A DNA stretch of 64,000 bases from Anaerolineae bacterium (GCA_041082215.1 JBDOIF010000058.1:1406-65405), one strand, 5' to 3'. Positions 9,384 through 45,302 are shown, numbered from the stretch's first letter. Notes: a model not told the origin generated them from the sequence alone. Numbers and translations: made by a program.

Positions 9384-9396
9384 GGCACGTCGAGCG

Positions 9397-12087: not shown

Positions 12088-12112
12088 GTTGGGCGGACGG
12101 GGGGAGGAAGTC

Positions 12113-13000: not shown

Positions 13001-13009
13001 GGAAGCCCG

Positions 13010-22341: not shown

Positions 22342-23465
22342 TGGTGCTGACGGATTTTCTGCTGCCAAGGCCCTATAAGCTGTATACCATTCTCAGAGCC
22401 AGGCGTCATCCAGCGCCGATAGACCGGGCTCGGGTTGAGAGGGTGTTGGCCTCTTTTGACTGTGGTCAGTTGAAAGGCTGCCGACGGCCAGCAATCGGAC
22501 CCAGCCGTTCCGCAAATTTCATTCTGGAGACGAGTGATGGTCTGAAGGTCCTGAAGCAGTATAGGCCAGATATGAGCCTTGGGGGCATCACCTATGAACA
22601 CTCGGTTCTGAAACACCTGGCCAATCATCACTTCCCTTCACCCAGGCTGATCCCGAACAGGGAAGGAGAGACCTGTGTAGAGATAGACGGCAGACATTAC
22701 GCCCTTTTTGAGTTCATCCCTGGTTTCCGCTACAGTGATTACTTTTTTCTTTCCAGGAAGATGAGGTTCTTTCTTACAGAGGCAGGCAAGACTCTCGCCC
22801 ATTACCATCAAGTTGTAGAGGGTTTGGTTCCATCCGGTAGGAAGCTGGACGGTTTTGTCCCCGATGGCTCGCGGCGGTGGCGCGATCAGAGCTGGTATCT
22901 GGATCTGTTTGCAGCATCTGAGGAGTTGTTTAGGGCGAGGGGGGCGGGATCGGAATCAAGCCGGTTTTTCCTCGATAACCTGGCGCGGCTTGAGGAATGC
23001 TATATTGATCTCAACCAGAGGCTTGCTCAAAGTTTGATCTCGCTACCCAAGTTGGTTATCCATGGAGATTATGGTCCCTATAATCTTCTTTTCAATGGGG
23101 GGGCACTGGTGGCTGTACTGGATTTCGAATGCACTCATCTCGATCTGCGGGCCATCGAGATCATTACATCTCTGGTCCGCTTTGCCAGCTCAGATGCAAG
23201 GTTTGACTATGATAAAGCCAGGGTTTTCTTCAGGGCCTATGTTTCACAGTGTCCCCTCTCGAGGGGCGAGATCGAAAGGATGCCGGATCTCTTCCGGCTG
23301 GAGAAAATCAGAGTATTGGCTTGTCTGCTGGAAGAATACTTTAGTTTAGCAGATTCACTGATGCTTCGCTACGCTCGTCAGTTGATGGGCCGGATTGATT
23401 GGATGGCAAAGAACAGCGACGAGTTGGTTCAGGTCTTGCTGGAGTGTGCGGAGACAAGAGGCTGA
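22341..23465 (+). CDS. Protein-kinase-fold phosphotransferase (APH / choline-kinase / homoserine-kinase II family).
   Basis: Brenner motif VIHGDYGPYNLLF and downstream LDFE; about 374 aa; ATG overlaps the stop of the upstream GT gene. GC content is locally lower. Confidence 0.7.
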   Translation: MVLTDFLLPRPYKLYTILRARRHPAPIDRARVERVLASFDCGQLKGCRRPAIGPSRSANFILETSDGLKVLKQYRPDMSLGGITYEHSVLKHLANHHFPSPRLIPNREGETCVEIDGRHYALFEFIPGFRYSDYFFLSRKMRFFLTEAGKTLAHYHQVVEGLVPSGRKLDGFVPDGSRRWRDQSWYLDLFAASEELFRARGAGSESSRFFLDNLARLEECYIDLNQRLAQSLISLPKLVIHGDYGPYNLLFNGGALVAVLDFECTHLDLRAIEIITSLVRFASSDARFDYDKARVFFRAYVSQCPLSRGEIERMPDLFRLEKIRVLACLLEEYFSLADSLMLRYARQLMGRIDWMAKNSDELVQVLLECAETRG

Positions 23466-24645: not shown

Positions 24646-26121
24646 TTGATGAGAATACCGATGCTATCTGCTGGTTGGGCGCGTTTTCGCCCGTTATCTG
24701 GAGTGCGGTGGGTCCTCTATGCCCTGATCGCGGGGGCATTGGGAGGGTTGCTGGGTCGGATGCTGGCCTCCCCCTTCAGGGATTTCGTGGCTCCCTTGAT
24801 CTTTATGGGGGCCTGCATCCTCCTTGCGCTTAAACACCCGCTGGATGGGCTTCTCTTTGCGCTGATCGTGCATCCCTTCATCAATTTCTTCTATCTCAAC
24901 ATAGATCTCGGTGCAGGCATTCCCTCTATCAGCTTGTTGCGAGTGATCGTCGCCCTCACGTTCGCGCTGATCCTTGCCCGGATAGCCACAGGAAGGTATC
25001 GCTCTTCACGCCTCACTTCGGTTGAGGTGTTGATGGTTTTGGCCACGATAGGGCTGGGGCTGGCCGCAGCACGAGGTACTGCCAAGACGACGTACTTCCA
25101 GTGGCTGTTCGATAAGTTTATGGCACCTTATATGCTCTATTATGTCACAAAACATCTGACGCTCAACCGCCCGGCGGTCGAGCGAACGCTGTGGACTGTG
25201 ATGCTCATCGGTGCTTATTGTGGCATCTATGGGATTTACACCCAGACAACAGGCAACATCCTTTTTGTGGAAGGGGAACTCACAGGGCCGCTCTGGTACA
25301 ATGAGCATCTCCGGATTATGCGGGGGCTGCTGGATTCCCCCCACGTTTTCGGGCTTGTGTTCTCGCTGGCGCTTCCCATAGACTTTTACCTGCTGATCAG
25401 GGCCTCCGGGGTGGGTAAGAAGCTCCTGCTGAGCGTTATGTTGCTGGCCACTCTGGGCGGGCTCTTCTTTACCTACAAGCGCACTGCCTGGATAGCCACA
25501 ATGGCCAGCTTCCTGGTCGTCATGTTCTTTTTCCCCCGCTTCCGGCGTTTGTTCCTCGTCCTTCTCATCCTGTCCGGCGTGGTCATTGCGCTGTACTCGG
25601 ACCAGATCAGCGATAGCGCCGTGGTCTCCCAGCGGCTGGGTGAAAAAGCGAACACGCTGAACGGACGGCTTGAGCTGTGGCAAGCTGCCTGGCAGGAGTG
25701 GAAGCGAGCGCCTTATTTTGGACATGGCTTTGGGGGTTTTTTCGCCAGAACCTCTTTAAAAGCTATAGAAAGTCATTATCTGTGGCTGCTGGTAGATAGC
25801 GGCCTTGCGGGTTTCATCCCTTACGTCCTGATTTTCCTGCTTGTTTTCAGGAACAGCGTCCGGCTCTTCCGGGCCAGGGCGCCAGTGGTTTTTGTGGAAC
25901 CCGACCTGGTGGCGATCTTCTGGGGTGTGTTTGTCGCCTACCTGGTCAGTCTCTCTACAGTCGTTATGAACCACGAGCTCCCCCATACCCTGTTCTTCCT
26001 GCTGGCCGGAGCAATAGTTGGCTCACAGGAAGTAGCTCTTGCTCAGGAGGCGGGCGAACCCTCGGGGAAAGGGCGTCCCATGCGGCTGGTCCAGGCCGAC
26101 AAGAGGGAGGGTATGCGATGA
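24646..26121 (+). CDS. O-antigen ligase family (Wzy_C domain) membrane protein, WaaL/WsaB-like.
   Basis: About 11 predicted transmembrane segments; a large loop containing ESHYLWLLVDSGLAG (an H...D/E-x-G-x-x-G ligase-type motif). Confidence 0.65.
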   Translation: MMRIPMLSAGWARFRPLSGVRWVLYALIAGALGGLLGRMLASPFRDFVAPLIFMGACILLALKHPLDGLLFALIVHPFINFFYLNIDLGAGIPSISLLRVIVALTFALILARIATGRYRSSRLTSVEVLMVLATIGLGLAAARGTAKTTYFQWLFDKFMAPYMLYYVTKHLTLNRPAVERTLWTVMLIGAYCGIYGIYTQTTGNILFVEGELTGPLWYNEHLRIMRGLLDSPHVFGLVFSLALPIDFYLLIRASGVGKKLLLSVMLLATLGGLFFTYKRTAWIATMASFLVVMFFFPRFRRLFLVLLILSGVVIALYSDQISDSAVVSQRLGEKANTLNGRLELWQAAWQEWKRAPYFGHGFGGFFARTSLKAIESHYLWLLVDSGLAGFIPYVLIFLLVFRNSVRLFRARAPVVFVEPDLVAIFWGVFVAYLVSLSTVVMNHELPHTLFFLLAGAIVGSQEVALAQEAGEPSGKGRPMRLVQADKREGMR

Positions 26122-27323
26122 GAGTGGCCATTCTCGGCGACTACCCCCTTGAGCCCAATCGCATTGCCGGTGGCGTCGAGGCCGTCGTCAGTTATCTGGT
26201 CGCCGAGCTGAGGAAGTTTGAGGACCTCGAGCTTCACGTGGTGACATTTCACGAGGATGTACGACAGCGATATGTATGTCAGCAGGGAAGCAATCTCACG
26301 GTGCACTATCTGCCGCCCGCCTACCGCTTTGCCAACGTGACCTTTTTTGTTATTAACAAGTTCCGGTTGCTCCGGGAGCTGGCAGGCATTGAACCGGACC
26401 TGATCCATGCTCATATCGCGGGCACTTACGCTGAGGTAGCCCATATGACAGGGCTTCCCACCGTCTTGACCTTGCATGGCATCCGATATCGCAGCAAATG
26501 GCTACAGCAAGGGTGGCTGAACCGGCTGGTGCGACGGCCGTTGATCGCCCGCGAGGAAAGGGCCAGCGTCAGAAAGGCCCGTCATATCATCGCTATCAAT
26601 CCTTATATTCAGGAAGAATTCGGCTCCCTCATCCGGGCGACCGTCTACCCTATCGAGAATCCGGTTCCCGATAAGTTCTTCAACCTGGAGAGGCGGGAGA
26701 AAGGGGCCTGGGTCCTCTATGTAGGCCGCATTACCGGGGGCAAGGGGGTAGAGCTTTTGATCCAGGCTATGGCCTCCGTGCGAGATCGCATACCTGAAGC
26801 TCGGCTTCATCTGGCTGGTGGGGCAGGTGACGCTTCTTATCAGCGGTCTTTGCAGGAGCTGGTGAAAAGCCTGGAGCTGGACGAGAGCGTGCACTTCCTG
26901 GGCCTTCTGGATGAGGAGCGCCTGCTTGAGGCATATGAGCAATGTGCGCTGGTGGTCCTCCCCTCTTATCATGAAACGGCCCCTATGGCTATCCAGCAAG
27001 CTATGGCGGCGGGGAAACCTGTGGTGGCCACCAGGGTTGGAGGTGTGCCCCATCTGGTTGCTCATGGGAAGACAGGCTTGCTGGTTGATTATGGAGATAT
27101 AGCCGGACTAGCAGAGGCCATCATCCATATCTTGTCTGACGATGTGTCGCGAGTTCGGATGGGGGAACAAGCCCGAAGGGAGGCATTGCAACGATTCCAT
27201 GTAGCCGTTGTGGCCCGCCAGACATACGAGGTATACCAGAGAGTTTTTAAGGAACACGTCAGGGGCAAATCATGGCAGGGATTTTTGGTATTTATGACCC
27301 GAAAACGGCTCGGGAGCACCTGA
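26118..27323 (+). CDS. Glycosyltransferase family 1 (GT4).
   Basis: GGVEAVVSYLVAEL; YETAPMAIQQAMAAGKPVVATRVGGVPHLVAHGKTGLLV. Confidence 0.85.
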   Translation: MRVAILGDYPLEPNRIAGGVEAVVSYLVAELRKFEDLELHVVTFHEDVRQRYVCQQGSNLTVHYLPPAYRFANVTFFVINKFRLLRELAGIEPDLIHAHIAGTYAEVAHMTGLPTVLTLHGIRYRSKWLQQGWLNRLVRRPLIAREERASVRKARHIIAINPYIQEEFGSLIRATVYPIENPVPDKFFNLERREKGAWVLYVGRITGGKGVELLIQAMASVRDRIPEARLHLAGGAGDASYQRSLQELVKSLELDESVHFLGLLDEERLLEAYEQCALVVLPSYHETAPMAIQQAMAAGKPVVATRVGGVPHLVAHGKTGLLVDYGDIAGLAEAIIHILSDDVSRVRMGEQARREALQRFHVAVVARQTYEVYQRVFKEHVRGKSWQGFLVFMTRKRLGST

Positions 27324-29161
27324 CAGCTCTGGCCTTGCGTATGCAGTCCGTTATCACCCATCACTCGTGGTACCAGGGCCAGGCGGTCGTGCAGCCGCCG
27401 CTGGCCGCCGGACGGGTGGGCCTGGGGATCCTCAACCCGCAACCGCAGCCAGCTGGCAATGAAGATGAGGCGGTCCTGGTATGGATGGATGGCGAGATTT
27501 ACGATTTCCAGCGCCAGGAGCTTGCCCGTCGGTTGCAGGCCGCCGGTCACCGGCTTGAGGGTAAGGGTGATGCAGAGCTACTGGCTCACTTATATGAGGA
27601 TGAGGGTGAGGATTGTTTGCGTGACCTTGACGGTACGTTCGCCGTGGCGGTTTTCGACAAGCGTCTGAACAAGTTATTGATCGGCGTGGATCGTAGTGCC
27701 TCACGGCAGTTGTACTTCTATACCTGCGACAACCGATTCCTGTTTGCCTCCGAAGTGAAGGCCATCCTGCAGGACCATCGTGTGCCACGCCAGTTGGATG
27801 AGCAGGGGTTGATCGAGTTCTTCACCTTTCGCCATCCCCTTGGCGAGCGTACGCTGATCAGGGATGTACGCTTCCTGCCTGCGGGTTGTCTGGCCGTCTT
27901 CTGCGATGGTCAGGCTCAAGTTAAGCGTTACTGGGAACCGTTTGTTGTCGATGATTTCTCCAGAACGCGAGAGGATTACCTGGCCGGGCTGGAGGCGGGG
28001 TTGCGACTGGCACTGGAGCGACAGTTATACGATGACAGGCCTATTGGCGAAATGTTGAGCGGAGGCCTGGATTCTCGCTTGTTGGCCGGTCTGGTGCCGC
28101 CCCAGCGGATGGAGCATTTTCATACTTTTGGTCGAGGCCCGCTGGAATGCTGGGATGTCAAATTCGGCGCAATGGTTGCCAGGGCGGTGGGCAGCCAGCA
28201 TCATATCTTTGAACTCAAACCAGACTTTCTCCCTCCTCTGGCCAGGCAGGGCGTGTGGTTGACCGACGGACTGATGACCGTGGTGGATATCTATGAATTG
28301 AGTTCCATCGAGCTGGTTAAGTCCTATGTTGATGTTGTTTTCCTGGGTCTTGGCCGGGGGTGTGGCGTTTTGGGCGGCGTAGAATTGAGCAACCGGCTGC
28401 TGGAGGCCCGAAATCTAGACGAAGCAGCACAGGAATTCTTCGCTCGACAGGGGACTTATATTCCCCAGGATGTGCAGGCCCGGTTGCTCTCCGGCCAGCT
28501 CTATCAGGATACGCAGGGCGCAGCCTTTGAGACCTTCCGTCAGATGCTGGAGAGCTGTCGGGCTGACACTCCCGCCGGTCATGTTGAGGTCTTCTGTATC
28601 CAGTGCCGTTGGCCGCGCTCGGCAGGCTATGGCCCTTTCCTGGCCCGCACGCGGGTTGAGACCCGCCACCCCTATCATGACAATGACTTCTCCGATCTGG
28701 TGTGTCGGGTGCCTGCCCGCTGGCGGCTGAAGCGGCAGATGGAAATAGCCCTTCTCAAACGCGCCCGGCCTGACCTGGCCCGGATCCCCTATGACTATAC
28801 CGGCTTGCCGGCCAGCATCAGCACCCCCACCGTCATGTTTATTCAGCGCGGGCTTTACTATATGCGCCGTAGGGCAAGTTATCTGACCCGCGGATGGATC
28901 CCGGCCGGTACAGAGCGAGAGCGGGCTAATTACCCTGTCTGGTTTCGCACCAGCCTGAGGAAGTGGCTGGAAAGTATCCTGCTGGATAAGCGTACTCTGG
29001 ATCGTGGCTACTTGAACGAGGCCTTTCTCAGGCAAATGATCAGCGACCATATGGAGGGTCGGCGGGACTATTCCGTGCAGTTCGGGCTTCTGCTGACCTT
29101 TGAGCTGTGGAACCGCCTGTTCATAGACGGGGAGCCTGTGGTCACCGATGAGCCATTTTGA
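27272..29161 (+). CDS. Asparagine-synthetase (AsnB) family ATP-dependent amidotransferase-like protein in which the nucleophile Cys2 is replaced by Ala.
   Basis: MAGIFGIY at the position of the canonical MCGIxGI. PP-loop SGGLDS present (EMLSGGLDSRLLAGL). 629 aa. Confidence 0.8.
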   Translation: MAGIFGIYDPKTAREHLTALALRMQSVITHHSWYQGQAVVQPPLAAGRVGLGILNPQPQPAGNEDEAVLVWMDGEIYDFQRQELARRLQAAGHRLEGKGDAELLAHLYEDEGEDCLRDLDGTFAVAVFDKRLNKLLIGVDRSASRQLYFYTCDNRFLFASEVKAILQDHRVPRQLDEQGLIEFFTFRHPLGERTLIRDVRFLPAGCLAVFCDGQAQVKRYWEPFVVDDFSRTREDYLAGLEAGLRLALERQLYDDRPIGEMLSGGLDSRLLAGLVPPQRMEHFHTFGRGPLECWDVKFGAMVARAVGSQHHIFELKPDFLPPLARQGVWLTDGLMTVVDIYELSSIELVKSYVDVVFLGLGRGCGVLGGVELSNRLLEARNLDEAAQEFFARQGTYIPQDVQARLLSGQLYQDTQGAAFETFRQMLESCRADTPAGHVEVFCIQCRWPRSAGYGPFLARTRVETRHPYHDNDFSDLVCRVPARWRLKRQMEIALLKRARPDLARIPYDYTGLPASISTPTVMFIQRGLYYMRRRASYLTRGWIPAGTERERANYPVWFRTSLRKWLESILLDKRTLDRGYLNEAFLRQMISDHMEGRRDYSVQFGLLLTFELWNRLFIDGEPVVTDEPF

Positions 29162-31481
29162 TGTCCGGTATCCCGTCTGGCGAGTTCGAGCCGTCCTCGC
29201 CAAAGGCCCGGGACACCTGCTGAGGCTGGGACAGTGGTATGCAAGGAGGGCCGTTCAGCAGGCCCGCAGGTGCTGGCGTCCCTCGGCGGTGGGCGAAAGC
29301 GCGTTTCTGGCCCAGCTTTCCCTGCCCTCCATCGGGCAGACTGAGTGGGACGACGGTCCTGCAATGGTCAGGCAGGCAGCGGTTCAGCATTTCAGAAGGC
29401 GCGCCCGGCCCGTGTTTTTCTTCGACCCGAACGACATCCAGGCCCTGGTCGTCAATGTGAGAGATGTGGATAAAGAAAGAACCATCATTCAGGCCAATGA
29501 GATCTGTGACCTTGTTTTCCGCTTCCGTGGCGAACCGCCTGTCGCGTTCAATGGGCTGGTGGATTGGTTCTACTGCCCACGGGGGAACCGCGACTGGACA
29601 TGGGAGTTGAATCGCCATAGCTACTTTGTGACCCTGGGGCGGGCCTATGCCTATACCGGGGACGAACGTTACGTCCGCACGTTTCGCGATCTGTTGCTCG
29701 ATTGGCTCAAGCACAATCCGGTGGGGCTCGATCAGCCCAATTGGGCCAGCGTGCTCGAGGTTGCTTACCGCATCAATGCCTGGATTTGGGCCTACCATCA
29801 CTTCCTGACAGCCACTGGCCTCGACGACGATGCCCTGCTTGCCTGTCTTCGTGGCCTGTGGATTCACGGCCGTTATCTGGCGACCAACCTGGAGTATCAC
29901 GTGCCCAACAATCACCTGCTGCTGGAAAGCAAGGCATTAGCGATGTGTGGCCTGTTGTTCCCCGAGTTCAGGGACGCAGAAAGGTGGCTCGAACAAGGGC
30001 TTTCGATCCTGTGGCGGCAACTCCGCCAGCAGGTCAGTCCAGATGGCGTGCACAGAGAACAGGCGACGATGTATCACCGGATGATCGCCAGCGAGTTGCT
30101 TGAGATGCTCGTGCTATTAGAGAACAACAGCATCGCCGTGCCCCCAGACATAATGGGCATTTTCAGGCGATTGCTCGATTTTGAGCGTGCCTTTACAGCG
30201 CCCGATGGCCAGGTCCCTTTGATTGGCGACTCGACCCTCAGCGATAGCTATATCCGCTTCTCCGCCCTGGCTGGCGGCGCGGCTTTCCTGGGTTATACCG
30301 ATGGGGCATCCGCCACCGTTGACGAGGCAACTCTGTGGCTCCTGGGTCCGGAGCGGGCTTTGCGATCACCCCTCTCTGGTGAAGTTTTGGCCCCTCCGGC
30401 CTCGCAGGCTTTCCCTGAAGGCGGCTATTTCATTATGCGGGATAGCGATGGCCGGGGAGCTCCTTTTCTGATCTTCGACTGCGGGCCTTTCGGCTATCGG
30501 CCAGCACCGGGCCACAGCCACGCGGATGCCCTGAGCTTTGAGCTGCATGCCTGCGGGCGGCCGCTGGTCGTGGATCCGGGAGTATATAGCTACCACCTGG
30601 GGGGGCAGTGGCGCAACTACTTTCGGAGCACCCCTGCTCACAATACGGTCGCTGTGGACGGAGAGGACCAGTCGTTGTTGCTGGGTATGTGGCATGTCCT
30701 CCGACCAGCCCGGGCCACACTCCACGAGTGGGTTACCACCCAGCAATTTGACTTTGTGGACGGTTCCCACGACGGATATGCGCGCCTTCGTCAACCCATC
30801 ATTCATCGGCGACAGATCTTCTTCGCCAAACCTGAATACTGGGTTATCCTCGACCTCCTCACCGGGCAGGGCCAGCACCGGTTTGACCTTTACTTCCATC
30901 TGATGCCCGATGCCCGGGTCGCCCTGGATCCGCTTTCGGGCGCAGCTCACATCAGTTATGGCGATGGAGCGGGCCTTCTGATTTATCCGGCCACCTGCGC
31001 CGATTCCCAGGTCGAGGTTATCACCGGCAGCCTCGACCCGATCCAGGGCTGGGTTTCCCGACTTTCAGGGGAAAAGACTCCCGCGCCAACCCTGCGATAC
31101 AGGAAAGTCACAGATGCCCCGATCATGTTCGTCACCGTTCTTTATCCCTCTGCCCGGATAGGCCGGGCCGCTGTCAATGTGTCGCCCTTGGTTGTGACCG
31201 ACGGGGAGGACGTCTTCGACGAGGTGGCGGTAACCGGGCTAAGGGTCGAAGTGGACCCATATGTGGACTATCTGGTGGTGGACCGTCGTAAGCGGCCGGG
31301 TCATAAGACCTTCGAGGATTACACCACCGACGGAGGGCTTGTTTACCTGCGACGGCGTGTCTCAGAGGGTACGCCGATCAAGGCCATCGTGCACCGGGGC
31401 AGCGAGCTCAGGCTGAACAACGAGCCCCTGATCATGCACACCGAAGGGCGCGTGTTCTGTGGGGCGAATACTGAAGGTTAG
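29148..31481 (+). CDS. Heparinase II/III-family protein (alginate-lyase-like alpha/alpha toroid plus beta-sandwich).
   Basis: NWASVLEVAYRINAWIWAYHH region and PAPGHSHADALSFELHACGRPLVVDPGVYSY (Hepar_II_III-type motif); 777 aa. Confidence 0.7.
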   Translation: MSHFDVRYPVWRVRAVLAKGPGHLLRLGQWYARRAVQQARRCWRPSAVGESAFLAQLSLPSIGQTEWDDGPAMVRQAAVQHFRRRARPVFFFDPNDIQALVVNVRDVDKERTIIQANEICDLVFRFRGEPPVAFNGLVDWFYCPRGNRDWTWELNRHSYFVTLGRAYAYTGDERYVRTFRDLLLDWLKHNPVGLDQPNWASVLEVAYRINAWIWAYHHFLTATGLDDDALLACLRGLWIHGRYLATNLEYHVPNNHLLLESKALAMCGLLFPEFRDAERWLEQGLSILWRQLRQQVSPDGVHREQATMYHRMIASELLEMLVLLENNSIAVPPDIMGIFRRLLDFERAFTAPDGQVPLIGDSTLSDSYIRFSALAGGAAFLGYTDGASATVDEATLWLLGPERALRSPLSGEVLAPPASQAFPEGGYFIMRDSDGRGAPFLIFDCGPFGYRPAPGHSHADALSFELHACGRPLVVDPGVYSYHLGGQWRNYFRSTPAHNTVAVDGEDQSLLLGMWHVLRPARATLHEWVTTQQFDFVDGSHDGYARLRQPIIHRRQIFFAKPEYWVILDLLTGQGQHRFDLYFHLMPDARVALDPLSGAAHISYGDGAGLLIYPATCADSQVEVITGSLDPIQGWVSRLSGEKTPAPTLRYRKVTDAPIMFVTVLYPSARIGRAAVNVSPLVVTDGEDVFDEVAVTGLRVEVDPYVDYLVVDRRKRPGHKTFEDYTTDGGLVYLRRRVSEGTPIKAIVHRGSELRLNNEPLIMHTEGRVFCGANTEG

Positions 31482-31487: not shown

Positions 31488-32720
31488 GTGACGATGCCCG
31501 TTGTCGCTTATGTCTCGCAACAGTTTCCCTGCCTGACGATGACCTTCATCTACCGCGAGGTTCTGGCCCTCCGCCGTCAGGGTCTGACCATCCGCCCGAT
31601 CTCGACCTGGCGTCCTCCGGCGGGCGTGATGTCCAAGGAGGCAGAAGGGCTCATCGGTGAGACCTTCTACATCTTCCCGTTGCCCTGGCTAAGGCTGCTG
31701 GGCAACCATCTGCGCTATTTGCTCACGCGGCCGAAGCGCTATCTGGGGACGTTGGGGCAACTTGTGCTCTTTAACCGCGAACCGCTCAGGCACCGATTGC
31801 GCCTGCTGGCCCATTTTGTCTATGCCGTCCGGGCCGCTGCCGAGGTAGAGCGCTGCCAGGCTCAGCATATTCATGCCGACTTTGCGCTGAACGCCGCCAC
31901 GGTCGCTATGGTGGCGTCGCGGCTTACAGGCAGGCCTTTCAGCTTTACCGCCCACGCTGCCGATATCTTTGTTGACCCCATCCTGCTCCGGGAAAAGATC
32001 GCCGCCGCCTCCTTCGTCGTAGCGATCTCAGAGTATAACAGACGATACCTGATCAGTATAGCGGGTGATAACGGAGTAGCCGACAAGATTCATATCGTTC
32101 ACTACGGACTGGATATCGGTCAATTCACTCCCGATCCGGAACGGAAACCCAATGCCATTCCGGTGCTTCTGACCATCGGGCGGCTGGTTGAGAAGAAAGG
32201 TCTCCCGTATCTCGTGAAAGCCTGTCGCATCCTCGTCGAACAGGGTTACGAGTTTGAGAGCCTTGTTATTGGGCAGGGGCCTGAAGAAAAGATGCTACGC
32301 CAACTTGTCCAGGAATATGGCCTGGACGATCGGGTTCATTTGCTCGGGGCGATGCCTCAGGAACGGGTGCGGGAATTGCTCCGGCAAGCGGACATTTTTG
32401 TCCTTCCGTGCGTGGTGGCCAGCGACGGCGATCGGGACGGCATCCCCGTGGTCCTGATCGAGGCGATGGCTATGGGGTTGCCTGTGATCTCGACCTCTCT
32501 TTCTGGTATCCCGGAACTGATCGAAAACGGGGTAAGCGGCTGGGTGGTCTCCCCGCAGGACGAGGAGGAGCTGGCCAGAGCAGTGGCTATACTGTTACGA
32601 GATCCCCAGCAGCGAGCAAAGATGGGCGCTGCTGGGCGACGTAAGGTCCTGGAGGAATTCAACATAGAGCGGAGTGCAGCCCAACTGCGTGCTCTGTTTG
32701 GTGGATTGGCGACCGGATAA
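31488..32720 (+). CDS. Glycosyltransferase family 1 (GT4).
   Basis: KGLPYLVKAC...; GIPVVLIEAMAMGLPVISTSLSGIPELIENGVSGWVV. Confidence 0.85.
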   Translation: MTMPVVAYVSQQFPCLTMTFIYREVLALRRQGLTIRPISTWRPPAGVMSKEAEGLIGETFYIFPLPWLRLLGNHLRYLLTRPKRYLGTLGQLVLFNREPLRHRLRLLAHFVYAVRAAAEVERCQAQHIHADFALNAATVAMVASRLTGRPFSFTAHAADIFVDPILLREKIAAASFVVAISEYNRRYLISIAGDNGVADKIHIVHYGLDIGQFTPDPERKPNAIPVLLTIGRLVEKKGLPYLVKACRILVEQGYEFESLVIGQGPEEKMLRQLVQEYGLDDRVHLLGAMPQERVRELLRQADIFVLPCVVASDGDRDGIPVVLIEAMAMGLPVISTSLSGIPELIENGVSGWVVSPQDEEELARAVAILLRDPQQRAKMGAAGRRKVLEEFNIERSAAQLRALFGGLATG

Positions 32721-32734: not shown

Positions 32735-33817
32735 ATGCTTTTCAAGAGATGGTTCTGGGTGGGGAAGGCGGTTGCGCAGGATGAGCTTGTCCGATGGGCA
32801 ATTTGCACGATGCTTGCCGGTTTTCTTCTACTGTTGTTATTTGCTTTTCAGGGCACGGGTGCGGAATCGCCTGTTCCTGGCGGACCGGGAAGTCTGAGCA
32901 CCGATGGTTCACCGACTCCCCTCGGCGATTACAGGATGTTCCTGCCGCTTGTCATGCGCAGTGAAACCTGGCGGCCTTTCTCCGACGATAGCCCCTGGAA
33001 TATCCCCATCCCTGCCAATCCGAAAATAGATCCCAATTCCAGTGCAATGATCGCCCATCTCCAGCAATCGTCGAGCCCAGTATTCTGGATCAACATCTAC
33101 ACCTATACCGTGCCGGTCTGGATGGCCGATAGTTCGACTCCTGAATACAAGGTGACCTGCACACAGGGGTACTGCGGCCCCGACTTTGACCACGTCCCTA
33201 TACCCGACGGGGCCGTTCCTGACCCGGGCAACGATGCCCACATGCTCATTCTTGATCTGGGGAGGCATACATCGTGGGACTTGTGGCTGGCGCAACGATC
33301 CCCGAACGGCTCCTGGACGGCCGGGTTCGGCACGACGTTTGACCTGAACGGAGATGGCGTAAAGCCCTACGGTCAGGGAAGCGCGCGCGGCTCGGGTTTT
33401 CCCTTGGCAGCAGGGTTGATTTATGCAGATGAGGTCAGGGCAGGACACATCCGCCATGCGCTGGTTATGGGTTATGACTGGCCCCGCAACTGTCTGGTGT
33501 ATCCGGCCAGCACCAACTGCGGCCTGAGCACCGATCCGAATGCCATCCCAATCGGCGCTCGCCTGCAGTTGGACCCGTCATTGAACCTGGATTCGCTGGG
33601 TTTGAGTCCGGGGGCCAGAGTTGTGGCCCGGGCTATGCAGGAGTACGGCCTGTACATTGGCGACAACACCTATGGCCTGAGCCTCTATGCTGAATCTTTC
33701 TATGGCAAGCCCGTGGACGGATGGGCAGGGCTTCTGAGAGAAAACGATCTGGTCGGAATCCCAATTGACAGACTGCGCGTACTCGAATTGGGGGAGCTGA
33801 GATGTGACCCCCATTAG
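32735..33817 (+). CDS. Secreted or membrane-anchored protein of unknown function.
   Basis: N-terminal hydrophobic anchor (WAICTMLAGFLLLLLFAF) followed by a Pro/Gly/Ser linker; no recognisable catalytic motifs. Confidence 0.4.
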   Translation: MLFKRWFWVGKAVAQDELVRWAICTMLAGFLLLLLFAFQGTGAESPVPGGPGSLSTDGSPTPLGDYRMFLPLVMRSETWRPFSDDSPWNIPIPANPKIDPNSSAMIAHLQQSSSPVFWINIYTYTVPVWMADSSTPEYKVTCTQGYCGPDFDHVPIPDGAVPDPGNDAHMLILDLGRHTSWDLWLAQRSPNGSWTAGFGTTFDLNGDGVKPYGQGSARGSGFPLAAGLIYADEVRAGHIRHALVMGYDWPRNCLVYPASTNCGLSTDPNAIPIGARLQLDPSLNLDSLGLSPGARVVARAMQEYGLYIGDNTYGLSLYAESFYGKPVDGWAGLLRENDLVGIPIDRLRVLELGELRCDPH

Positions 33818-36225: not shown

Positions 36226-37302
36226 ATGGAAGCGGTTAAGGAGGGGAAGTGTTCGGAGATCGAGAGGCGTGCCGCTGTGCGCATTCCGCCTGCTCTGTTT
36301 CTGGCCTGGGCGCCCCCCAGCCACACCCGGCGCAGCGAGTTGATGGCCCGCAGGCTGGGCATCCCTCTGCGACGGGTCCATGTCCTGAAACTGAAGCCTT
36401 ACCTGGCGCCACTGCGCTACAGCATCCAGGCCGTTCTGACCCTGATCATCCTGTTTCGCGAACGCCCGAAAGTGGTGTTTGTCCAAAACCCTCCCATCTT
36501 TGCGCCTCTGTTTGCCTGGATGTACTGTGCCCTCACAGGGTCTGGCCTGATCATTGACTCCCACACAGATGCGCTACAAAGCCGAATCTGGCGATGGTCT
36601 CTCCCGATCCACCGCTTTCTCTCCCGTCGTGCTGTGGTAACGATTGTGACCAACGAACACTTGAGTCAGATTATTTCCGGTTGGGGGGCCAGGAGCCAGA
36701 TCGTTGTGGACATTCCCAGTGATCTCCCTTCAGGAACGCCCTATCCGGTGCAGCATCCATTTAACATAGCTATGGTGAGTTCGTTCGCTCCTGACGAACC
36801 GCTGGATGAGGTGGTGGAGGTAGCAAGGAGTCTGCCCGATGTGGGCTTCTACGTCACCGGCGATCCGGTGCAGGGCTTCAAGCGCCTGCCAGCCGATCCG
36901 CCCCCCAACCTGCACCTGACCGGGTTCCTGCCCGACGATAAATACTACGGCCTGTTGCGCTCGGTACAGGCGGTCATGGCCCTGACGACGGAAGATCACA
37001 CCATGCAGCGCGGCGCCTGCGAAGCGGTCTGGTTGGGTCAGCCTGTCATTACTTCCAACTGGCCCCTGTTGCGTCAGACCTTCCACAAAGGCACGGTCCA
37101 TGTGGATAACACCGCTGAGGGTATCCGGACTGGCGTGTTGGACATGCGCGCCCAATACCAGCGACTGGCTGAAGAAGTGGCATTGCTCCAGGAAGAGCGC
37201 CGGCGTCAGTGGGGGGAGATCGAAGATTGGCTAGAAAGGCTGGTCTCTGGGGCTTTTGAACATCCGGCTCCGAAGTGGAAGCATGGGGATAGCATATCTT
37301 GA
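36226..37302 (+). CDS. GT-B fold glycosyltransferase (GT4-like, divergent).
   Basis: C-terminal GACEAVWLGQPVITSNWPLL resembles the GT1 donor-binding region. Confidence 0.5.
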   Translation: MEAVKEGKCSEIERRAAVRIPPALFLAWAPPSHTRRSELMARRLGIPLRRVHVLKLKPYLAPLRYSIQAVLTLIILFRERPKVVFVQNPPIFAPLFAWMYCALTGSGLIIDSHTDALQSRIWRWSLPIHRFLSRRAVVTIVTNEHLSQIISGWGARSQIVVDIPSDLPSGTPYPVQHPFNIAMVSSFAPDEPLDEVVEVARSLPDVGFYVTGDPVQGFKRLPADPPPNLHLTGFLPDDKYYGLLRSVQAVMALTTEDHTMQRGACEAVWLGQPVITSNWPLLRQTFHKGTVHVDNTAEGIRTGVLDMRAQYQRLAEEVALLQEERRRQWGEIEDWLERLVSGAFEHPAPKWKHGDSIS

Positions 37303-38233: not shown

Positions 38234-38240
38234 AGGGAAT

Positions 38241-39449: not shown

Positions 39450-39451
39450 GT

Positions 39452-40528: not shown

Positions 40529-41156
40529 GCGGCTGATCGAATTGATCGAGGACTGGAACTATCTGATCGGGCGCGATGGATGGCGGGCAGCGCTGCCGGT
40601 AGTGGGGAGAGAGGTCATAGAATTGCCCTGCCGGTGTAAGAAATTCGCAATTCTGACACGATCCCTCCTGGAGCCTCTGCCCGACCTGGAGCCTCCTCTG
40701 GCCCTTGAGATCCGCGAGTTCAGGCCCGCCGACTTGGAGCTGGTGCGGCCGATCAACCGCCCTTCGGAAATCAGGACCTGCGCGCTGAGATTGGCCCGCG
40801 GTCATCAGGGCCTGCTGGGCCTGTACCAGGGCCGGCCGGTGGGGTATGCCTGGAGTTGTGCAGAGACATCCCTGGAGAGGGTACACCTGAGGCTCGAACC
40901 GGGCGATGCACTCTGCACAGATGCCTATACAGTCCCAGACTTCCGCAGGCGTGGTATACAGACTGCGCTGACAATCGCTCGCTTTCGTCTGCTCCGCGAT
41001 CTGGGTTACCGGAGGGCCGTTGCTTATATCGAACAGAATAACCGCCCATCCCTTGCCGTGTGGCGTCGTGTGGGCGGTCAGGTGGCAGGATATTTCTGCT
41101 TCATTCGGATCGGCCCCTGGCGCTGGGTGCGGTATAGGAAGGGAGTGGGAGAATGA
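40512..41156 (+). CDS. GNAT family N-acetyltransferase.
   Basis: RRRGIQTALTIARFRLLRDLGYRRAVAYIEQNNRPSLAVWRRVG (acetyl-CoA binding motif A region). Confidence 0.7.
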   Translation: MMKWGRRLIELIEDWNYLIGRDGWRAALPVVGREVIELPCRCKKFAILTRSLLEPLPDLEPPLALEIREFRPADLELVRPINRPSEIRTCALRLARGHQGLLGLYQGRPVGYAWSCAETSLERVHLRLEPGDALCTDAYTVPDFRRRGIQTALTIARFRLLRDLGYRRAVAYIEQNNRPSLAVWRRVGGQVAGYFCFIRIGPWRWVRYRKGVGE

Positions 41157-42469
41157 GGATCAGCATCTTCGGTCTGGGATATGTGGGCGCCGTCTCCGCG
41201 GCCTGTCTGGCCCGGGATGGCCACGAGGTGATCGGGGTGGACATCAACCCGATGAAGGTGCAGTTCATCAACGACGGATGCAGCCCCATCAGCGAGGAAT
41301 CGCTTGATACGCTGATCCGGCAGGGGGTGGAGCAGGGCCGCCTGCACGCTACCACCGACTCGCGGGCCGCTGTCCTCAACTCCGAAATCTCCCTCATCTG
41401 CGTCGGCACACCCAGCCACGATAACGGTAGCCTCGACCTCACCGCCGTCCGACGGGTGTGCCGGGAGATCGGCGAGGCGCTGGCCGAAAAACAGGGGGAG
41501 CATATCGTCGTGGTCCGCAGCACCGTCCTCCCTGGCACAACCCACCGGGTGGTCGTTCCGGAGCTGGAGCAGGCCTCCTCCAGACGGGTGGGCGAGGGCC
41601 TGGGGGTCTGCGTCGCTCCGGAGTTCCTCCGCGAGGGAAGCTCGGTGGAGGACTTCTACCATCCCCCCTTTACCCTGATCGGCCAGGAGGAGGCCCGGGT
41701 CGGCGAAAGGGTGGCCCGGCTCTTTGCAGCGGTCGAAGCGCCGGTGATCTATACCTCCATCCCCGTCGCCGAGATGGTCAAGTACGTCTGCAACGCCTAC
41801 CACGCCCTTAAGGTCGCCTTCGCCAACGAGATCGGCGCCATCTGTAAACAGCTCGGGATTGACAGCCACGAGGTGATGGACATCTTCTGCCTGGACCGGA
41901 AACTGAATATCTCCACCGCCTATCTCAGGCCGGGTTTTGCCTTCGGCGGTTCCTGCCTGCCCAAGGACCTGCGCGCTCTCCTCTACGCCGGCCACCATCT
42001 GGACCTCCAGCTCCCGCTCCTGGAGGCCGTCCTCCCCAGTAACGAGCTCCAGATCCGAAGGGCATGGGAGATGATCCAGAGGACAGGTAAAAAGCAGGTG
42101 GGCGTGCTGGGGCTCAGCTTCAAGCCGGGGACCGACGACCTGCGCGAAAGCCCGATGGTCGCGCTGACCGAGCGGCTGATCGGGAAAGGATATACGGTCT
42201 GGCTGTACGACCGCTACGTCTCCTGGGCCAAACTCCACGGGGCGAACAAGGCCTACATCGAGCGCGAAATCCCCCACATCTCCCGCCTCCTCTGCGCTGA
42301 ACTGGAGGAGGTGGTGGAACGGAGCGAGGTGCTTGTGATCGGCCACCGGTTCCCGGAGAGGGACCGGCTGCAGGCGCTCCTGCGGGCGGACCAGGTGGTG
42401 ATCGATCTGGTCCGCCTCAGCCCCGACGGGTGGCACGGCCCCGGGCGGTATGAGGGGATCTGTTGGTGA
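41153..42469 (+). CDS. Nucleotide-sugar 6-dehydrogenase (UDP-GlcNAc / UDP-Glc / GDP-Man 6-dehydrogenase family; WbpA/AlgD-like).
   Basis: MRISIFGLGYVGAVSAACLARDGHEVIGVD and the catalytic Cys region GFAFGGSCLPKD. Confidence 0.85.
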   Translation: MRISIFGLGYVGAVSAACLARDGHEVIGVDINPMKVQFINDGCSPISEESLDTLIRQGVEQGRLHATTDSRAAVLNSEISLICVGTPSHDNGSLDLTAVRRVCREIGEALAEKQGEHIVVVRSTVLPGTTHRVVVPELEQASSRRVGEGLGVCVAPEFLREGSSVEDFYHPPFTLIGQEEARVGERVARLFAAVEAPVIYTSIPVAEMVKYVCNAYHALKVAFANEIGAICKQLGIDSHEVMDIFCLDRKLNISTAYLRPGFAFGGSCLPKDLRALLYAGHHLDLQLPLLEAVLPSNELQIRRAWEMIQRTGKKQVGVLGLSFKPGTDDLRESPMVALTERLIGKGYTVWLYDRYVSWAKLHGANKAYIEREIPHISRLLCAELEEVVERSEVLVIGHRFPERDRLQALLRADQVVIDLVRLSPDGWHGPGRYEGICW

Positions 42470-42493
42470 GAGTGGAGCGGAAAGGAGGGTGAT

Positions 42494-43519
42494 ATGCTCA
42501 GGGCAGCCGTGATCGGCGTGGGCAGTATGGGGGCCAACCACGCCAGGATATACAACGAGCTGGAGGAGGCCGATCTGGTGGCGGTGGCCGACGTTCGGGA
42601 GGAGGTTGCCCGACGGGTCGGCCGCGTCTACAGCGCCCGGCCCTATACCGACTACCGCTGTCTGCTGGAAAAGGAGCGGCCGGACATTGTCTCTGTGGCG
42701 GTGCCGACGAAGGAGCACTTCGCTGTGGCAGTAGACGCGCTCGAGGCAGGCGCCTACGTGCTGGTGGAAAAACCGCTGGCCGCCACCGTGGAGGAGGGAA
42801 AACAGCTTGTCAAACGGGCGCATGCCTTAGGACGGCATCTGATGGTGGGCCACATCGAGCGGTTCAACCCCGCTGTCGCCGAGCTGAAGGCTCGCATTGA
42901 CGCTGGCTGCTGTGGCACTCTCTTGGAAATCCATACCCGCCGCCTCGGTCCCTTCCCATCCCGCATCCGCGATGTCGGGGTCATTGTGGATCTGGCCACT
43001 CACGATCTGGATATCATGCGTTACCTCACCGGCTCCGAAGTCCTCCGCCTCTACGCCGAAACCGGCTCCCATATCCATACCTGCGAGGATGTCCTTTCCG
43101 GCCTGGTCCGTTTTGCCAATGGGGTGCTCGGAGTCCTGGATGTGAGCTGGCTCATCCCCACCAAGATTCGGGAGCTGTACGCCGTGGGGGAGCAGGGGAT
43201 GTTCCGGGTGGACTACGTCACCCAGGACCTCTACTTCTACGAAAACGGCTTTTCTGACAGCCAGTGGGGCTCCCCCGGCACTCTCTGGGGGGTCGCAGAG
43301 GGGCAGATGATCCGCCTCTGCATCCGTAAACAGGAGCCCCTCCGCGTCGAGCTGGCCTCCTTCGTCCAATCTGTGCTGGAGGACCGGCCTCCGCCGGTCC
43401 GCGGGGAGGACGGCCTGGCCGCGCTGGAGCTGGCCCAGCACCTGCGCCTGTCCGGCCAGAGCCAGGAGGTCGTTCGGCTGAAGCGGCTGCAGGAACCAGC
43501 AGGAGTGTATCCGACATAA
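42494..43519 (+). CDS. Gfo/Idh/MocA-family NAD-dependent oxidoreductase (WbpB-like sugar 3-dehydrogenase).
   Basis: AAVIGVGSMGANHARIY...; EKPLAATVEEGKQLV. Confidence 0.8.
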   Translation: MLRAAVIGVGSMGANHARIYNELEEADLVAVADVREEVARRVGRVYSARPYTDYRCLLEKERPDIVSVAVPTKEHFAVAVDALEAGAYVLVEKPLAATVEEGKQLVKRAHALGRHLMVGHIERFNPAVAELKARIDAGCCGTLLEIHTRRLGPFPSRIRDVGVIVDLATHDLDIMRYLTGSEVLRLYAETGSHIHTCEDVLSGLVRFANGVLGVLDVSWLIPTKIRELYAVGEQGMFRVDYVTQDLYFYENGFSDSQWGSPGTLWGVAEGQMIRLCIRKQEPLRVELASFVQSVLEDRPPPVRGEDGLAALELAQHLRLSGQSQEVVRLKRLQEPAGVYPT

Positions 43520-43614
43520 GTACCGGCAAGATACGGATGAACAGCCGGAAGATCAGTGGAGCTCCGCAGAACTCCATATTCTCTGTGCTCCGCGGTGCAA
43601 AGACAGGAGGAGAT

Positions 43615-44226
43615 ATGAGCCCGGAAGCCTTCATCCACCCCACGGCCGAGGTCTCTCCCCAGGCCCGGGTCGGGGCCGGGACCCGCATCTGGCATCAGGC
43701 TCAGGTCCGTGAGGGGGCCTCGCTGGGTAACCACTGTATTGTAGGAAAGGGGGCGTATATTGACAGGGATGTATCCGTCGGCAACAATGTCAAAATTCAA
43801 AACGGCGTCTTCCTCTACCACGGCTCTACCGTCGAGGACGGCGTCTTCCTCGGCCCCGGCGTAGTGCTGACCAATGACAAGTACCCCCGCGCCATTACCC
43901 CTGAAGGGGAGCTGAAGGGGGACGCCGACTGGGAGGTAGGACCGATCCGCGTGAGGGAGGGAGCCTCCCTGGGGGCAGGGGCCATCGTCCTCCCCGGCGT
44001 CACCATTGGCCGCTTCGCGATGGTCGCGGCAGGCGCAGTCGTCGTGCGAGACGTGCCCGACTACGGGCTGGTCGTCGGCGTCCCCGCCCGCCTGCTGGGC
44101 TTCGTCTGTCTCTGCGGCCGTCCCCTGGAGATCGAAGCCCATATGGAAGAGGCCGTGTTGATGCGCTGTCCCGTCTGTCAAAGGTCGGTGGAAATCCCCC
44201 GTACCATCTGGGAGGAAAGCCAATGA
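43615..44226 (+). CDS. Hexapeptide-repeat N-acetyltransferase (WbpD-like).
   Basis: ATG preceded by aggagg. LbH repeats throughout (IHPTAEVSPQARVGAGTRIWHQAQVREGASLG...). Confidence 0.75.
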   Translation: MSPEAFIHPTAEVSPQARVGAGTRIWHQAQVREGASLGNHCIVGKGAYIDRDVSVGNNVKIQNGVFLYHGSTVEDGVFLGPGVVLTNDKYPRAITPEGELKGDADWEVGPIRVREGASLGAGAIVLPGVTIGRFAMVAAGAVVVRDVPDYGLVVGVPARLLGFVCLCGRPLEIEAHMEEAVLMRCPVCQRSVEIPRTIWEESQ

Positions 44227-45302
44227 TCCCTGTCGCCCAACCGCTGATCGGTGAGGAGGAAAAACAGGCTGTACTGGAGGTCCTTTCCTCTGGCCAATTG
44301 GCCCAGGGGCCGAAGGTGGCAGCCTTCGAAGAAGCGTTCGCCGAATATTGTGGGGTGCGGTTTGCCATCGCTACCTCCTCCGGCACGACCGCCCTCCACC
44401 TGGCCCTCCTGGCCCACGGGATCGGCCCGGGAGACGAGGTGATCACCACCTCCTTCTCCTTCATCGCCACCGCCAACGCCGTCCGCTACGCCGGGGCCCG
44501 CCCGGTGTTTGTGGACATCGAACCGCACACCTTCAATCTGAATCCAGCCGGGATCGAAGAGGTCATCACCCCCCGGACCCGCGCCATTATCCCTGTCCAC
44601 CTTTTTGGCCTCCCCTGCGACATGGAGCCGATCTTGGAGATCGCCGACCGGCACGGGCTGGTGGTGATCGAAGATGCCTGCCAGGCCCACGGCGCGGCGG
44701 TCAACGGACGAAGAGTGGGCAGTTTCGGCACAGGCTGCTTTTCCTTTTACCCCACCAAGAATATGACCACCGCCGAGGGGGGAATGGTCACCACTGACGA
44801 CGAAGAGGTGGCCGAACGATTGCGGGTGATCCGCAACCACGGGATGCGGCAACGCTACAAACACGAGATTCTGGGGTATAATTACCGCATGACCGACGTC
44901 CACGCCGCCCTGGGGCTGGGACAACTGGCCCGACTGGAAGCGTTCAACGCACGGCGCAGGGCCAACGCCCGGTACCTCAACCAGCATCTACGGGGGGTTG
45001 TAACTCCCTGGGCGCCGGAGGGGTTTTATCACGTCTTTCACCAGTATACCGTCCGGGTGCCGGACGGGAAGCGGGATTGGCTGGCCGAGCGCCTTCGGGA
45101 GCAGGGGATCGGTACAGCGGTCTATTATCCGATCCCGATCCATCAGCAGCCGACTTTCCGCGGCCTGGAGAACCCGGTCGGGCTGCCGGAGACGGAGCGA
45201 GCCGCCCGGGAGGCGCTCTCCCTGCCCGTCCATCCGGCGCTCGGTGAGGAGGAGCTGCAGAGGATCGTCGAGGCGGTGAACCGCTCGCTGGAAATCATCT
45301 GA
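44223..45302 (+). CDS. DegT/DnrJ/EryC1/StrS-family PLP-dependent sugar aminotransferase (WbpE-like).
   Basis: IPVAQPLIGEEEKQAVLEVLSSGQLAQGPKV...; overlaps the upstream stop. Confidence 0.85.
   Translation: MIPVAQPLIGEEEKQAVLEVLSSGQLAQGPKVAAFEEAFAEYCGVRFAIATSSGTTALHLALLAHGIGPGDEVITTSFSFIATANAVRYAGARPVFVDIEPHTFNLNPAGIEEVITPRTRAIIPVHLFGLPCDMEPILEIADRHGLVVIEDACQAHGAAVNGRRVGSFGTGCFSFYPTKNMTTAEGGMVTTDDEEVAERLRVIRNHGMRQRYKHEILGYNYRMTDVHAALGLGQLARLEAFNARRRANARYLNQHLRGVVTPWAPEGFYHVFHQYTVRVPDGKRDWLAERLREQGIGTAVYYPIPIHQQPTFRGLENPVGLPETERAAREALSLPVHPALGEEELQRIVEAVNRSLEII

Follow-up and report, generated by a model that had tools for sequence, protein, structure and literature searches.

Which reaction is catalyzed by an asparagine synthase-like protein that has lost the nucleophile of its glutaminase domain and is encoded among polysaccharide genes? 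This question is raised by a gene in a 64,000-nucleotide (nt) stretch of DNA from an Anaerolineae bacterium (GCA_041082215.1 JBDOIF010000058.1:1406-65405), here called the window. The gene encodes a 629-amino-acid (aa) protein of the AsnB family with alanine at the position of the catalytic cysteine (Cys1) of class II amidotransferases. Known Cys-less AsnB homologs belong to antibiotic and lasso-peptide pathways, and the loss of the glutaminase there marks new amide-forming chemistry. An earlier note on this DNA treated the protein as an oddity of a single gene; instead, judged from sequence comparisons, the loss of Cys defines a large, ancient, and monophyletic branch of polysaccharide-type AsnB amidotransferases. 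We tentatively favor the reading that the protein is an enzyme that uses ATP, but not glutamine, to modify the carboxylate of a sugar, is irreversibly past glutamine hydrolysis, and has changed donor or acceptor chemistry. The gene and its start are as follows.

27272..29161, + strand, Cys-less AsnB-like gene, 629 aa (open reading frame translation, Pfam, AlphaFold2 model)
27275..27277, + strand, codon 2 (GCA, Ala2), at the position of the Cys1 nucleophile of class II amidotransferases (alignment, translation)
27248..27250, + strand, in-frame TAA, 8 codons 5' of the ATG of the AsnB-like gene (sequence)

The translation from the ATG at 27272 begins with MAGIFGIYDPKTA, and an AGGGG Shine-Dalgarno-like motif is located ~9 to 13 nt 5' of this ATG. 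No ATG, GTG, or TTG is present between the in-frame TAA (27248 to 27250) and the ATG. The upstream stop, which the earlier note had mentioned, therefore excludes an N-terminal extension. In a HMMER comparison with PDB sequences, Ala2 stands opposite residue 1 of 1ct9 (Escherichia coli AsnB, C1A mutant), and hhalign of the clade profile against the canonical profile gave the same register. Both alignments bear out the earlier reading of MAGIFGIY, with Ala2 (GCA) at the Cys position. The accompanying count of two nucleotide changes from TGC/TGT has to be corrected, since the step from GCA to TGY requires three.

The 44 closest database homologs (32 to 91% identity, mostly from Anaerolineae metagenome-assembled genomes) begin with MAG or MPG wherever the start is complete and never have Cys; the MCGI start was found in homologs with less than ~30% identity. 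Across independent assemblies, codon 2 is GCA, GCG, GCT, CCN, or TCA, and an ortholog with 90% identity from an independent metagenome-assembled genome starts with GTG-GCG. Since the orthologs lack Cys throughout (they have Ala, Pro, or Ser) and codon 2 varies synonymously, we agree with the earlier note that Ala2 is not a miscall. A sequencing error and a wrong start were thereby ruled out as its origin.

We then compared the former glutaminase domain with that of AsnB.

27272..27841, + strand, N-terminal nucleophile (Ntn)-type, former glutaminase domain, residues 1 to 190 (DSSP of the AlphaFold2 model, conservation)
27488..27496, + strand, Asp73-Gly74-Glu75, corresponding to AsnB Asn74-Gly75-Glu76, with the oxyanion-hole Asn replaced by Asp (alignments)
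27569..27571, + strand, Asp100, corresponding to AsnB Asp98, the binder of the glutamine alpha-amino group, retained (alignments)

The four-layer Ntn fold is recognizable: the protein matches Pfam GATase_7 (87.5 bits) and GATase_6 (72.1 bits; residues 58 to 167), followed by Asn_synthase (residues 241 to 498), and its AlphaFold2 model matches the AsnB, GlmS, and PurF structures. Nevertheless, because Cys1 is lost (Ala2) and the oxyanion-hole Asn74-Gly75 corresponds to Asp73-Gly74, the window protein is, judging from these residues, incapable of glutamine hydrolysis by the Ntn mechanism, as the earlier note had proposed. The oxyanion position is Asn in 52 of 52 Cys-type sequences, whereas in Cys-less sequences (n ~167) it is never Asn and mostly Asp or Glu. 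The equivalents of AsnB Gly75, Glu76, and Asp98 (Gly74, Glu75, and Asp100) are kept in the Cys-less family, in which conservation of the N-terminal domain equals or exceeds that of the C-terminal domain (mean top-residue frequency, 0.46 versus 0.39). Arg48 stands opposite AsnB Arg49 in the ungapped HMMER alignment, yet two residues upstream according to hhalign and MAFFT, and its placement is ambiguous by a few residues.

Residue 2 of the Cys-less proteins is almost always P, A, S, T, G, or V, exactly the set that permits removal of the initiator Met by methionine aminopeptidase. This limited choice suggests that a free, buried N-terminus is still needed in the family. A paralogous or partner glutaminase in the window was considered and rejected. 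No second AsnB was detected there by tblastn, and a 360-aa neighbor of no known family looks secreted or membrane-anchored instead.

Changes were also found in the synthetase domain.

28058..28078, + strand, PP-loop SGGLDS (residues 263 to 268) with the family-specific Arg269, SGGLDSR (alignments)
28256..28276, + strand, WLTDGLM motif, replacing the canonical AsnB substrate-binding region, including its ..DEP.. motif (alignments)
28346..28366, + strand, GLGRGCG, corresponding to AsnB S346-G-E348-G-S-D351-E352 and to T-G-Y348-G-A-D351 of beta-lactam synthetase (beta-LS), here with Leu360, Cys364, and Gly365 (alignments)
28790..28810, + strand, YDYTGLP, corresponding to canonical R-x-K449-x-G-F and to beta-LS R-P-K443-L-G-V, with Lys replaced by Tyr509; gap placement ambiguous (alignments)

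The SGGLDS sequence itself (28058 to 28075) agrees with the AsnB PP-loop pattern SGGxDS. Asp267, the equivalent of AsnB Asp238, is present in 100% of the Cys-less group and Ser263, Gly264, Gly265, and Ser268 in 93 to 100%; A2, S263, G265, D267, and S268 are invariant in a 100-sequence alignment. Arg269 was found in 97% of the Cys-less sequences, and the corresponding residue is Ser in 72% of the Cys-type sequences. In the WLTDGLM region, TDG takes the place of DEP, and Gly333 is present in 91% of the Cys-less family.

Thus, the claim that the ATP-pyrophosphatase domain is intact holds for the PP-loop but not for the positions of AsnB Glu348, Asp351, Glu352, and Lys449, which are Leu360, Cys364, Gly365, and Tyr509, respectively, according to hhalign, MAFFT, and motif alignment only. 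The reference for these alignments was the E. coli AsnB sequence, which was checked to be identical to 1ct9 apart from C1A. Arg49, Asn74, Asp98, Asp351, and Glu352 are each 100% conserved in the Cys-type sequences (n = 52), in which position 348 is acidic or an amide. In the Cys-less sequences (n ~167), position 348 is hydrophobic or aromatic (F, L, M, or Y), Asp351 is kept in only ~50%, and Glu352 in 0%, except for 1/3 Gly2 sequences; the equivalent of Gly347 is 95 to 97% conserved. Lys or Arg occupies the Lys449 position in only ~40% of the Cys-less family. As far as the alignments show, the loss of Cys co-varies with the replacement of Asn74 by Asp or Glu and with the loss of AsnB synthetase residues.

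How widespread such proteins are was analyzed by a HMMER scan that exhaustively covered 1.84 billion cluster representatives. Its best 150 matches included 72 MPG, 20 MSG, 12 MAG, 3 MTG, and 3 MGG starts but only 7 MCG starts. A search seeded with a Methanoperedens member yielded 112 further sequences (83 MPG, 9 MVG, and 3 each of MSG, MTG, and MAG; no MCG), including members from ANME-2, Hodarchaeota, and the cultured Methanosarcina lacustris Z-7289. Altogether, at least ~270 distinct homologs with P, A, S, T, G, or V at position 2 were found, drawn from a pool of thousands of AsnB-family matches in metagenome databases. In a neighbor-joining tree of 241 sequences, 165 of the 169 Cys-less proteins fall into one clade without any Cys-containing member, and the position-2 trait requires 2 parsimony steps. 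This clade spans Anaerolineae, Acidobacteriota, Methanosarcina/Methanoperedens, Bathyarchaeota, and Hodarchaeota, and its closest Cys-containing relatives in the tree are eps_aminotran_1/WbpS-like. Some members are named "asparagine synthase-related protein" by NCBI and "asparagine synthase (glutamine-hydrolysing)" in other sources; the latter label is incorrect, because the sequence of the members rules out glutamine hydrolysis. Tandem Cys-less paralogs were observed in several loci (L022, L027, L037, L041, and L044), and in L027 (2158 to 8455) an MPG-type and an MSG-type copy are located on either side of a UDP-sugar dehydrogenase gene.

The AlphaFold2 model, built from a 100-sequence alignment, has a mean predicted local distance difference test (pLDDT) score of 95.1 and a predicted template modeling score of 0.94. 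Foldseek ranked as its best matches, in this order, the hydroxyamidotransferase TsnB9 (7ylz), E. coli AsnB, beta-LS, human ASNS, and CarA, and comparison of the clade profile with PDB sequences gave the same order. Together with the Pfam matches to GATase_7 and Asn_synthase and the pLDDT of 95, this supports the assignment to the AsnB family. TsnB9, whose substrate is a polyketide acid, is the best PDB match by both sequence and structure (profile, 5e-48; TM, 0.73 to 0.79) and shows that the AsnB scaffold is able to deliver non-ammonia nitrogen nucleophiles. Unlike the window protein, it keeps MCG (Cys1) and the RRLSIID motif. The protein resembles E. coli AsnB (1ct9) in its fold (Foldseek E value, 1e-21), N-terminal register, Gly75-Glu76, Asp98, and SGGLDS but differs from it by replacement of Cys, Asn74, Glu348, Asp351, Glu352, and Lys449, by replacement of the aspartate-binding region, and by a ~35-residue insertion near the C-terminus.

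Among Cys-less relatives, beta-LS (1jgt/1mc1) and CarA (1q15), which have Tyr at position 348, have likewise lost Cys1 and the use of glutamine and have kept the PP-loop. They set a precedent for the use of ATP to form an amide with a nucleophile other than ammonia. Position 348 is nonacidic in both beta-LS (Tyr348) and the window protein (Leu360), but the set Tyr348/Asp351/Lys443 is missing from the latter: beta-LS keeps Asp351 and Lys443 (motifs TGY348GAD351 and RPK443LGV, checked in 1jgt), and the window protein has LGL360GRGC364 and DY509TGL. Furthermore, M-[PAS]-G-[ILV]-x-G and a constrained N-terminal domain are retained in the Cys-less family, in contrast to beta-LS with its nonconserved N-terminus. 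The window protein is less similar in sequence to beta-LS and CarA than to AsnB or TsnB9, and its context is polysaccharide synthesis instead of antibiotic synthesis. Lasso peptide cyclases are also AsnB derived and form isopeptide or lactam bonds in a Cys-independent, ATP-dependent manner; the protein gave a weak N-terminal match to their hidden Markov model. The Campylobacter jejuni protein Cj1438, an ATP-grasp amidoligase that joins serinol phosphate or ethanolamine phosphate to the carboxylate of capsular glucuronate, is a possible functional analog only, its fold (ATP-grasp, with acyl-phosphate chemistry) being unrelated.

With WbpS, WbqG, and PGN_1234, which are genetically tied to uronamide formation (PMC7468200), the protein shares the two-domain AsnB architecture of ~620 to 650 aa, the C-terminal ELWxRxFxD motif, and a niche with GT4, heparinase II/III-like, UDP-sugar dehydrogenase, and Wbp-type genes. 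Three eps_aminotran_1-type genes for a uronamide O-antigen have been described in Bordetella (PMC2615507). The window protein differs from this type in the absence of Cys1, the Asn74-to-Asp exchange, the loss of Glu348, Asp351, Glu352, and Lys449, and the presence of Arg269 and the TDG motif, and use of glutamine by the known mechanism is predicted to be impossible for it. It scored 186.6 bits against TIGR01536 (cutoff, 267.1), versus 499 to 538 bits for Cys-type exopolysaccharide homologs, and 180.6 bits against TIGR03108 (eps_aminotran_1; cutoff, 816.9), with the best stretch comprising residues 1 to 316 only. Heparinase-adjacent Cys-type proteins reached 580 to 675 bits over the full length of TIGR03108 and passed TIGR01536.

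The genes surrounding the AsnB-like gene were examined next.

26118..27323, + strand, upstream GT4 glycosyltransferase, with a 52-nt overlap with the start of the AsnB-like gene (Pfam; syntenic in 8 Anaerolineae loci)
29148..31481, + strand, heparinase II/III-like protein (777 aa) without signal peptide, with a 14-nt overlap with the stop of the AsnB-like gene (Pfam Hepar_II_III_N and Hepar_II_III_C)
31488..32720, + strand, downstream GT4 glycosyltransferase, EpsE/WcaL-like (domain search, synteny)
41153..45302, + strand, WbpA/WbpB/WbpD/WbpE-type genes for a UDP-sugar 6-dehydrogenase, a GFO oxidoreductase, a hexapeptide acetyltransferase, and a DegT aminotransferase (Pfam)

All genes between ~14.3 and 45.3 kb are on the + strand and form one polysaccharide supercluster. 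It starts with genes for a GT2, a deacetylase, another GT2, a hexapeptide acyltransferase, an S9 hydrolase, several GT4s, an APH-type kinase, Wzz, and Wzy. These are followed by a GT4, the AsnB-like protein, the heparinase II/III-like protein, a GT4, an exported protein of no known family, and a BNR/sortilin protein, and the cluster ends with a GT4, a deacetylase, a GT4, a FemAB-like protein, a GNAT protein, and the WbpA/WbpB/WbpD/WbpE-type genes. The AsnB-like gene is embedded in a module for repeat-unit assembly of the Wzx/Wzy type, in the order GT4, AsnB-like, heparinase II/III-like, and GT4. Overlaps of 52 nt and 14 nt suggest that the GT4, AsnB-like, and heparinase-like genes are probably translationally coupled. 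Since the heparinase-like protein has no signal peptide, a cytoplasmic biosynthetic role is suggested, perhaps that of a uronate epimerase or lyase. The GT2/GT4, Wzz, Wzy, and WbpABDE homologs are those of a locus for a polysaccharide with a uronic acid sugar, and from the Wbp pathway described in PMC7468200, the WbpABDE homologs predict a UDP-2,3-diacetamido-2,3-dideoxy-hexuronic acid precursor.

The order Wzz-(APH)-Wzy-GT4-AsnB-like-heparinase-like-GT4-BNR is conserved in 8 Anaerolineae genome loci (40 to 90% identity). More distant members (Bathyarchaeota, Methanoperedens, Acidobacteriota, and other metagenome contigs) also lie without exception in glycan loci, and most of them have a GT4 gene next to them or close by; they adjoin Wzx, DUF2206, or deacetylase genes, and the heparinase-like gene is missing there. 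In M. lacustris Z-7289 (L099; CP009515.1 3852538 to 3874421), the Cys-less protein (MPGLTGII..., SGGLDSR; gene at 3862538 to 3864421) is encoded in the order WecB-like epimerase, UDP-sugar dehydrogenase, methyltransferase, Wzx, Cys-less AsnB, and GT4, the epimerase and dehydrogenase genes being located 3 to 6 kb upstream of it.

A metagenome scan seeded with a 16-sequence family subset alignment yielded 28 Cys-less and 42 Cys-type loci, the latter serving as a control group. Both types were recovered because the C-terminal ELWxRxFxD motif is common to them. A GT4 gene was adjacent in 7/28 Cys-less versus 12/42 Cys-type loci, a heparinase-like gene was adjacent in 2/28 (a count that leaves out the Anaerolineae genome loci) versus 5/42, and a UDP-sugar dehydrogenase gene was present in the locus in 4/28 versus 5/42. 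Since the Cys-less family shares the genomic niche of the uronamide amidotransferases (eps_aminotran_1/WbpS-type), it most plausibly descends from them. In addition, we observed heparinase II/III-like genes adjoining AsnB-type genes of both types and in either order (L074, 4 to 3898; L081, 7774 to 11941; L091, 3 to 4205; L097, 1361 to 5517; and window, 27272 to 31481).

Taken together, the reading that we favor is as follows. In the cytoplasm, the C-terminal PP-loop domain would bind ATP and activate a carboxylate. The likeliest target would be C6 of the 2,3-diacetamido-hexuronic acid, either in the nucleotide sugar or in the lipid-linked repeat unit. Attack on the activated carboxylate by a nitrogen nucleophile, supplied by a source other than glutamine on the same polypeptide, would then give an amide. 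For this nucleophile, we infer an amine, an amino acid, or an intramolecular amine, as for beta-LS, CarA, and lasso cyclases, in preference to plain ammonia. Non-ammonia chemistry is favored because the synthetase site is remodeled alongside the glutaminase site and the dead N-terminal domain is still constrained; as in beta-LS and CarA, the two sites have changed in step, which argues for a changed nucleophile or reaction.

Several points weigh against this reading. According to the alignments, both Asp351 (Mg2+) and Lys449/Lys443, which are required for adenylation in AsnB and beta-LS, are missing, so adenylation would need substitute residues, with Arg269 as a candidate; the residue equivalences themselves rest on alignment and are ambiguous by a few residues around Arg49 and Lys449. 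A limited literature search found no biochemical data on any member of the family. Moreover, a hand tally found a UDP-sugar dehydrogenase gene within 10 kb in only about one-third of the well-flanked Cys-less loci. Therefore, the link to a uronate, which the earlier note had proposed, is supported by context (WbpA/B/D/E homologs, recurring UDP-sugar dehydrogenases, and eps_aminotran_1-like kin) but is not established family-wide. The absence of a dehydrogenase from a locus is nevertheless weak evidence, because neighbors were detected by tblastn with window proteins, which is insensitive to divergent genes.

A more specific proposal, which we put forward as speculative and rather doubtful, is that the family with the M-[P/A/S]-G, [D/E]-G-E, and SGGLDSR motifs comprises the long-sought enzymes by which amino acids or other amines are amide-linked to uronic acids at C6, both in the O-antigens and capsules of bacteria and in the N-glycans of archaea. 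The dead glutaminase pocket would then be reused as a binding site for the amine donor or for a portion of the substrate. Such a pocket could comprise the amino-acid-anchoring Asp and Glu and the new acidic residue seen in the alignments. An amino acid amide-linked to a uronic acid is exemplified by ManNAcA6Thr of Methanococcus glycans; a limited search for literature on Methanococcus AglU/MMP1084 and threonine attachment found nothing.

The enzyme could also be an ammonia-dependent uronamide synthase that performs the WbpS/WbqG reaction with free NH3/NH4+ and uses its N-terminal domain as a mere scaffold or tunnel. Its nearest Cys-type relatives are eps_aminotran_1-like and have the same neighbors, the WbpABDE genes are present in the window, and the C1A mutant of AsnB is known to retain ammonia-dependent synthetase activity. 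Furthermore, many hosts are anaerobic (bioreactor sludge, Methanoperedens, and Methanosarcina) and presumably live in ammonium-rich habitats, and the Asp or Glu at the former oxyanion position could, speculatively, bind NH4+. However, for this reaction a conserved synthetase site would be expected, yet Glu348, Asp351/Glu352, and Lys449 have disappeared and residues specific to the family have been gained, and the constraint on Gly74, Glu75, and Asp100 of the former glutamine site would be left unexplained. We regard this explanation as a serious competitor of the favored one, although on the improbable side.

It is unlikely that the protein binds ATP for chemistry other than that of AsnB or is a noncatalytic subunit. 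It might activate its substrate differently (carbonyl or amide activation, compare the acetamidino-forming PP-loop enzymes), or it might serve the GT4 and heparinase-like proteins as a structural or regulatory partner. The loss of three AsnB/beta-LS catalytic positions, with Asp351 at ~50% family-wide, would fit such a role, as would the overlap of the gene with both neighbors and the tandem paralogs in several loci. On the other hand, full conservation of the Asp238 equivalent, near-full conservation of Gly347 in the ~167 sequences, and the gain of an extra Arg make a pattern atypical of pseudoenzymes, and the protein shows strong purifying constraint over its whole length and a confident AsnB fold.

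A natural-product-type Cys-less AsnB homolog, that is, a lasso cyclase, a beta-lactam or carbapenam synthetase, or a macrolactam cyclase, is very improbable. Its weak NCBIfam matches to the lasso cyclase (NF033535, 104.7 bits) and macrolactam cyclase (NF033561, 29 bits) models are far below the cutoffs of 525 and 300, respectively. The clade profile does match beta-LS (7e-18) and CarA (2e-12), but the closest structures are TsnB9 and AsnB, not beta-LS; a precursor peptide, a protease, and other natural-product genes are absent, and the more than 20 neighboring genes are all polysaccharide genes. By model scores and context, a lasso-cyclase or beta-lactam-type role was ruled out. Finally, an artifact (sequencing error, wrong start, or decaying pseudogene) has a negligible chance, given the upstream stop without any other start, the 90%-identical GTG-GCG ortholog, and a full-length, conserved protein that folds confidently in the AlphaFold2 model.

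The polysaccharide-locus Cys-less branch, with its own signature and with members in bacteria and archaea, appears not to have been characterized previously, as far as a limited literature search can tell, which turned up nothing relevant on asparagine synthases in connection with heparinases, the catalytic cysteine, exopolysaccharides, or amide linkage. This branch is much larger than the known Cys-less branches, and every locus examined is dedicated to glycan assembly. If its members indeed form sugar amides from ammonia or amines, they would account for some of the chemical variety among surface polysaccharides, and the signature (position 2 not Cys, [D/E]GE, and SGGLDSR) would predict such sugar modifications. 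The cultured host M. lacustris Z-7289 makes the question tractable.

Several further features of the window were recorded. The block at 37256 to 45302, which comprises genes for a polysaccharide deacetylase, a GT4, a FemAB/Acetyltransf_6 protein, a GNAT protein, and the WbpA/B/D/E homologs, resembles VimE/VimF/VimA plus the Wbp pathway of Porphyromonas gingivalis, whose product is an N-aminoacylated diacetamido-uronic "linking sugar" (PMC7468200). An APH/homoserine-kinase-like phosphotransferase gene (22245 to 23465) is part of the Wzz-APH-Wzy-GT4-AsnB-like module conserved in several Anaerolineae loci, and this kinase could phosphorylate a sugar or amine donor. Also conserved in the Anaerolineae module are the genes for the 360-aa protein (32735 to 33817), which has no Pfam or NCBIfam match and carries an N-terminal membrane anchor or signal, and for the BNR/sortilin-like protein (33804 to 36224; F510_1955 glycosylhydrolase-like). 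Upstream of the supercluster, a second polysaccharide system (6836 to 14299) comprises dTDP-sugar genes, an apiosidase-like gene, a DRL-type oxidoreductase gene, and an ABC-2/Wzt exporter that carries the C-terminal domain of Wzt, so ABC-dependent and Wzy-dependent machineries adjoin. An open reading frame truncated by the window start (3 to 1430) encodes an unusual fusion of a DHDPS-family protein with a C-terminal formaldehyde-activating enzyme (Fae) domain. Lastly, two unrelated contigs encode a DUF362 protein in the vicinity of Cys-less AsnB loci, at 45985 to 47097 of the window, where it is fused to a 4Fe-4S ferredoxin domain, and at 15360 to 16241 of L002.

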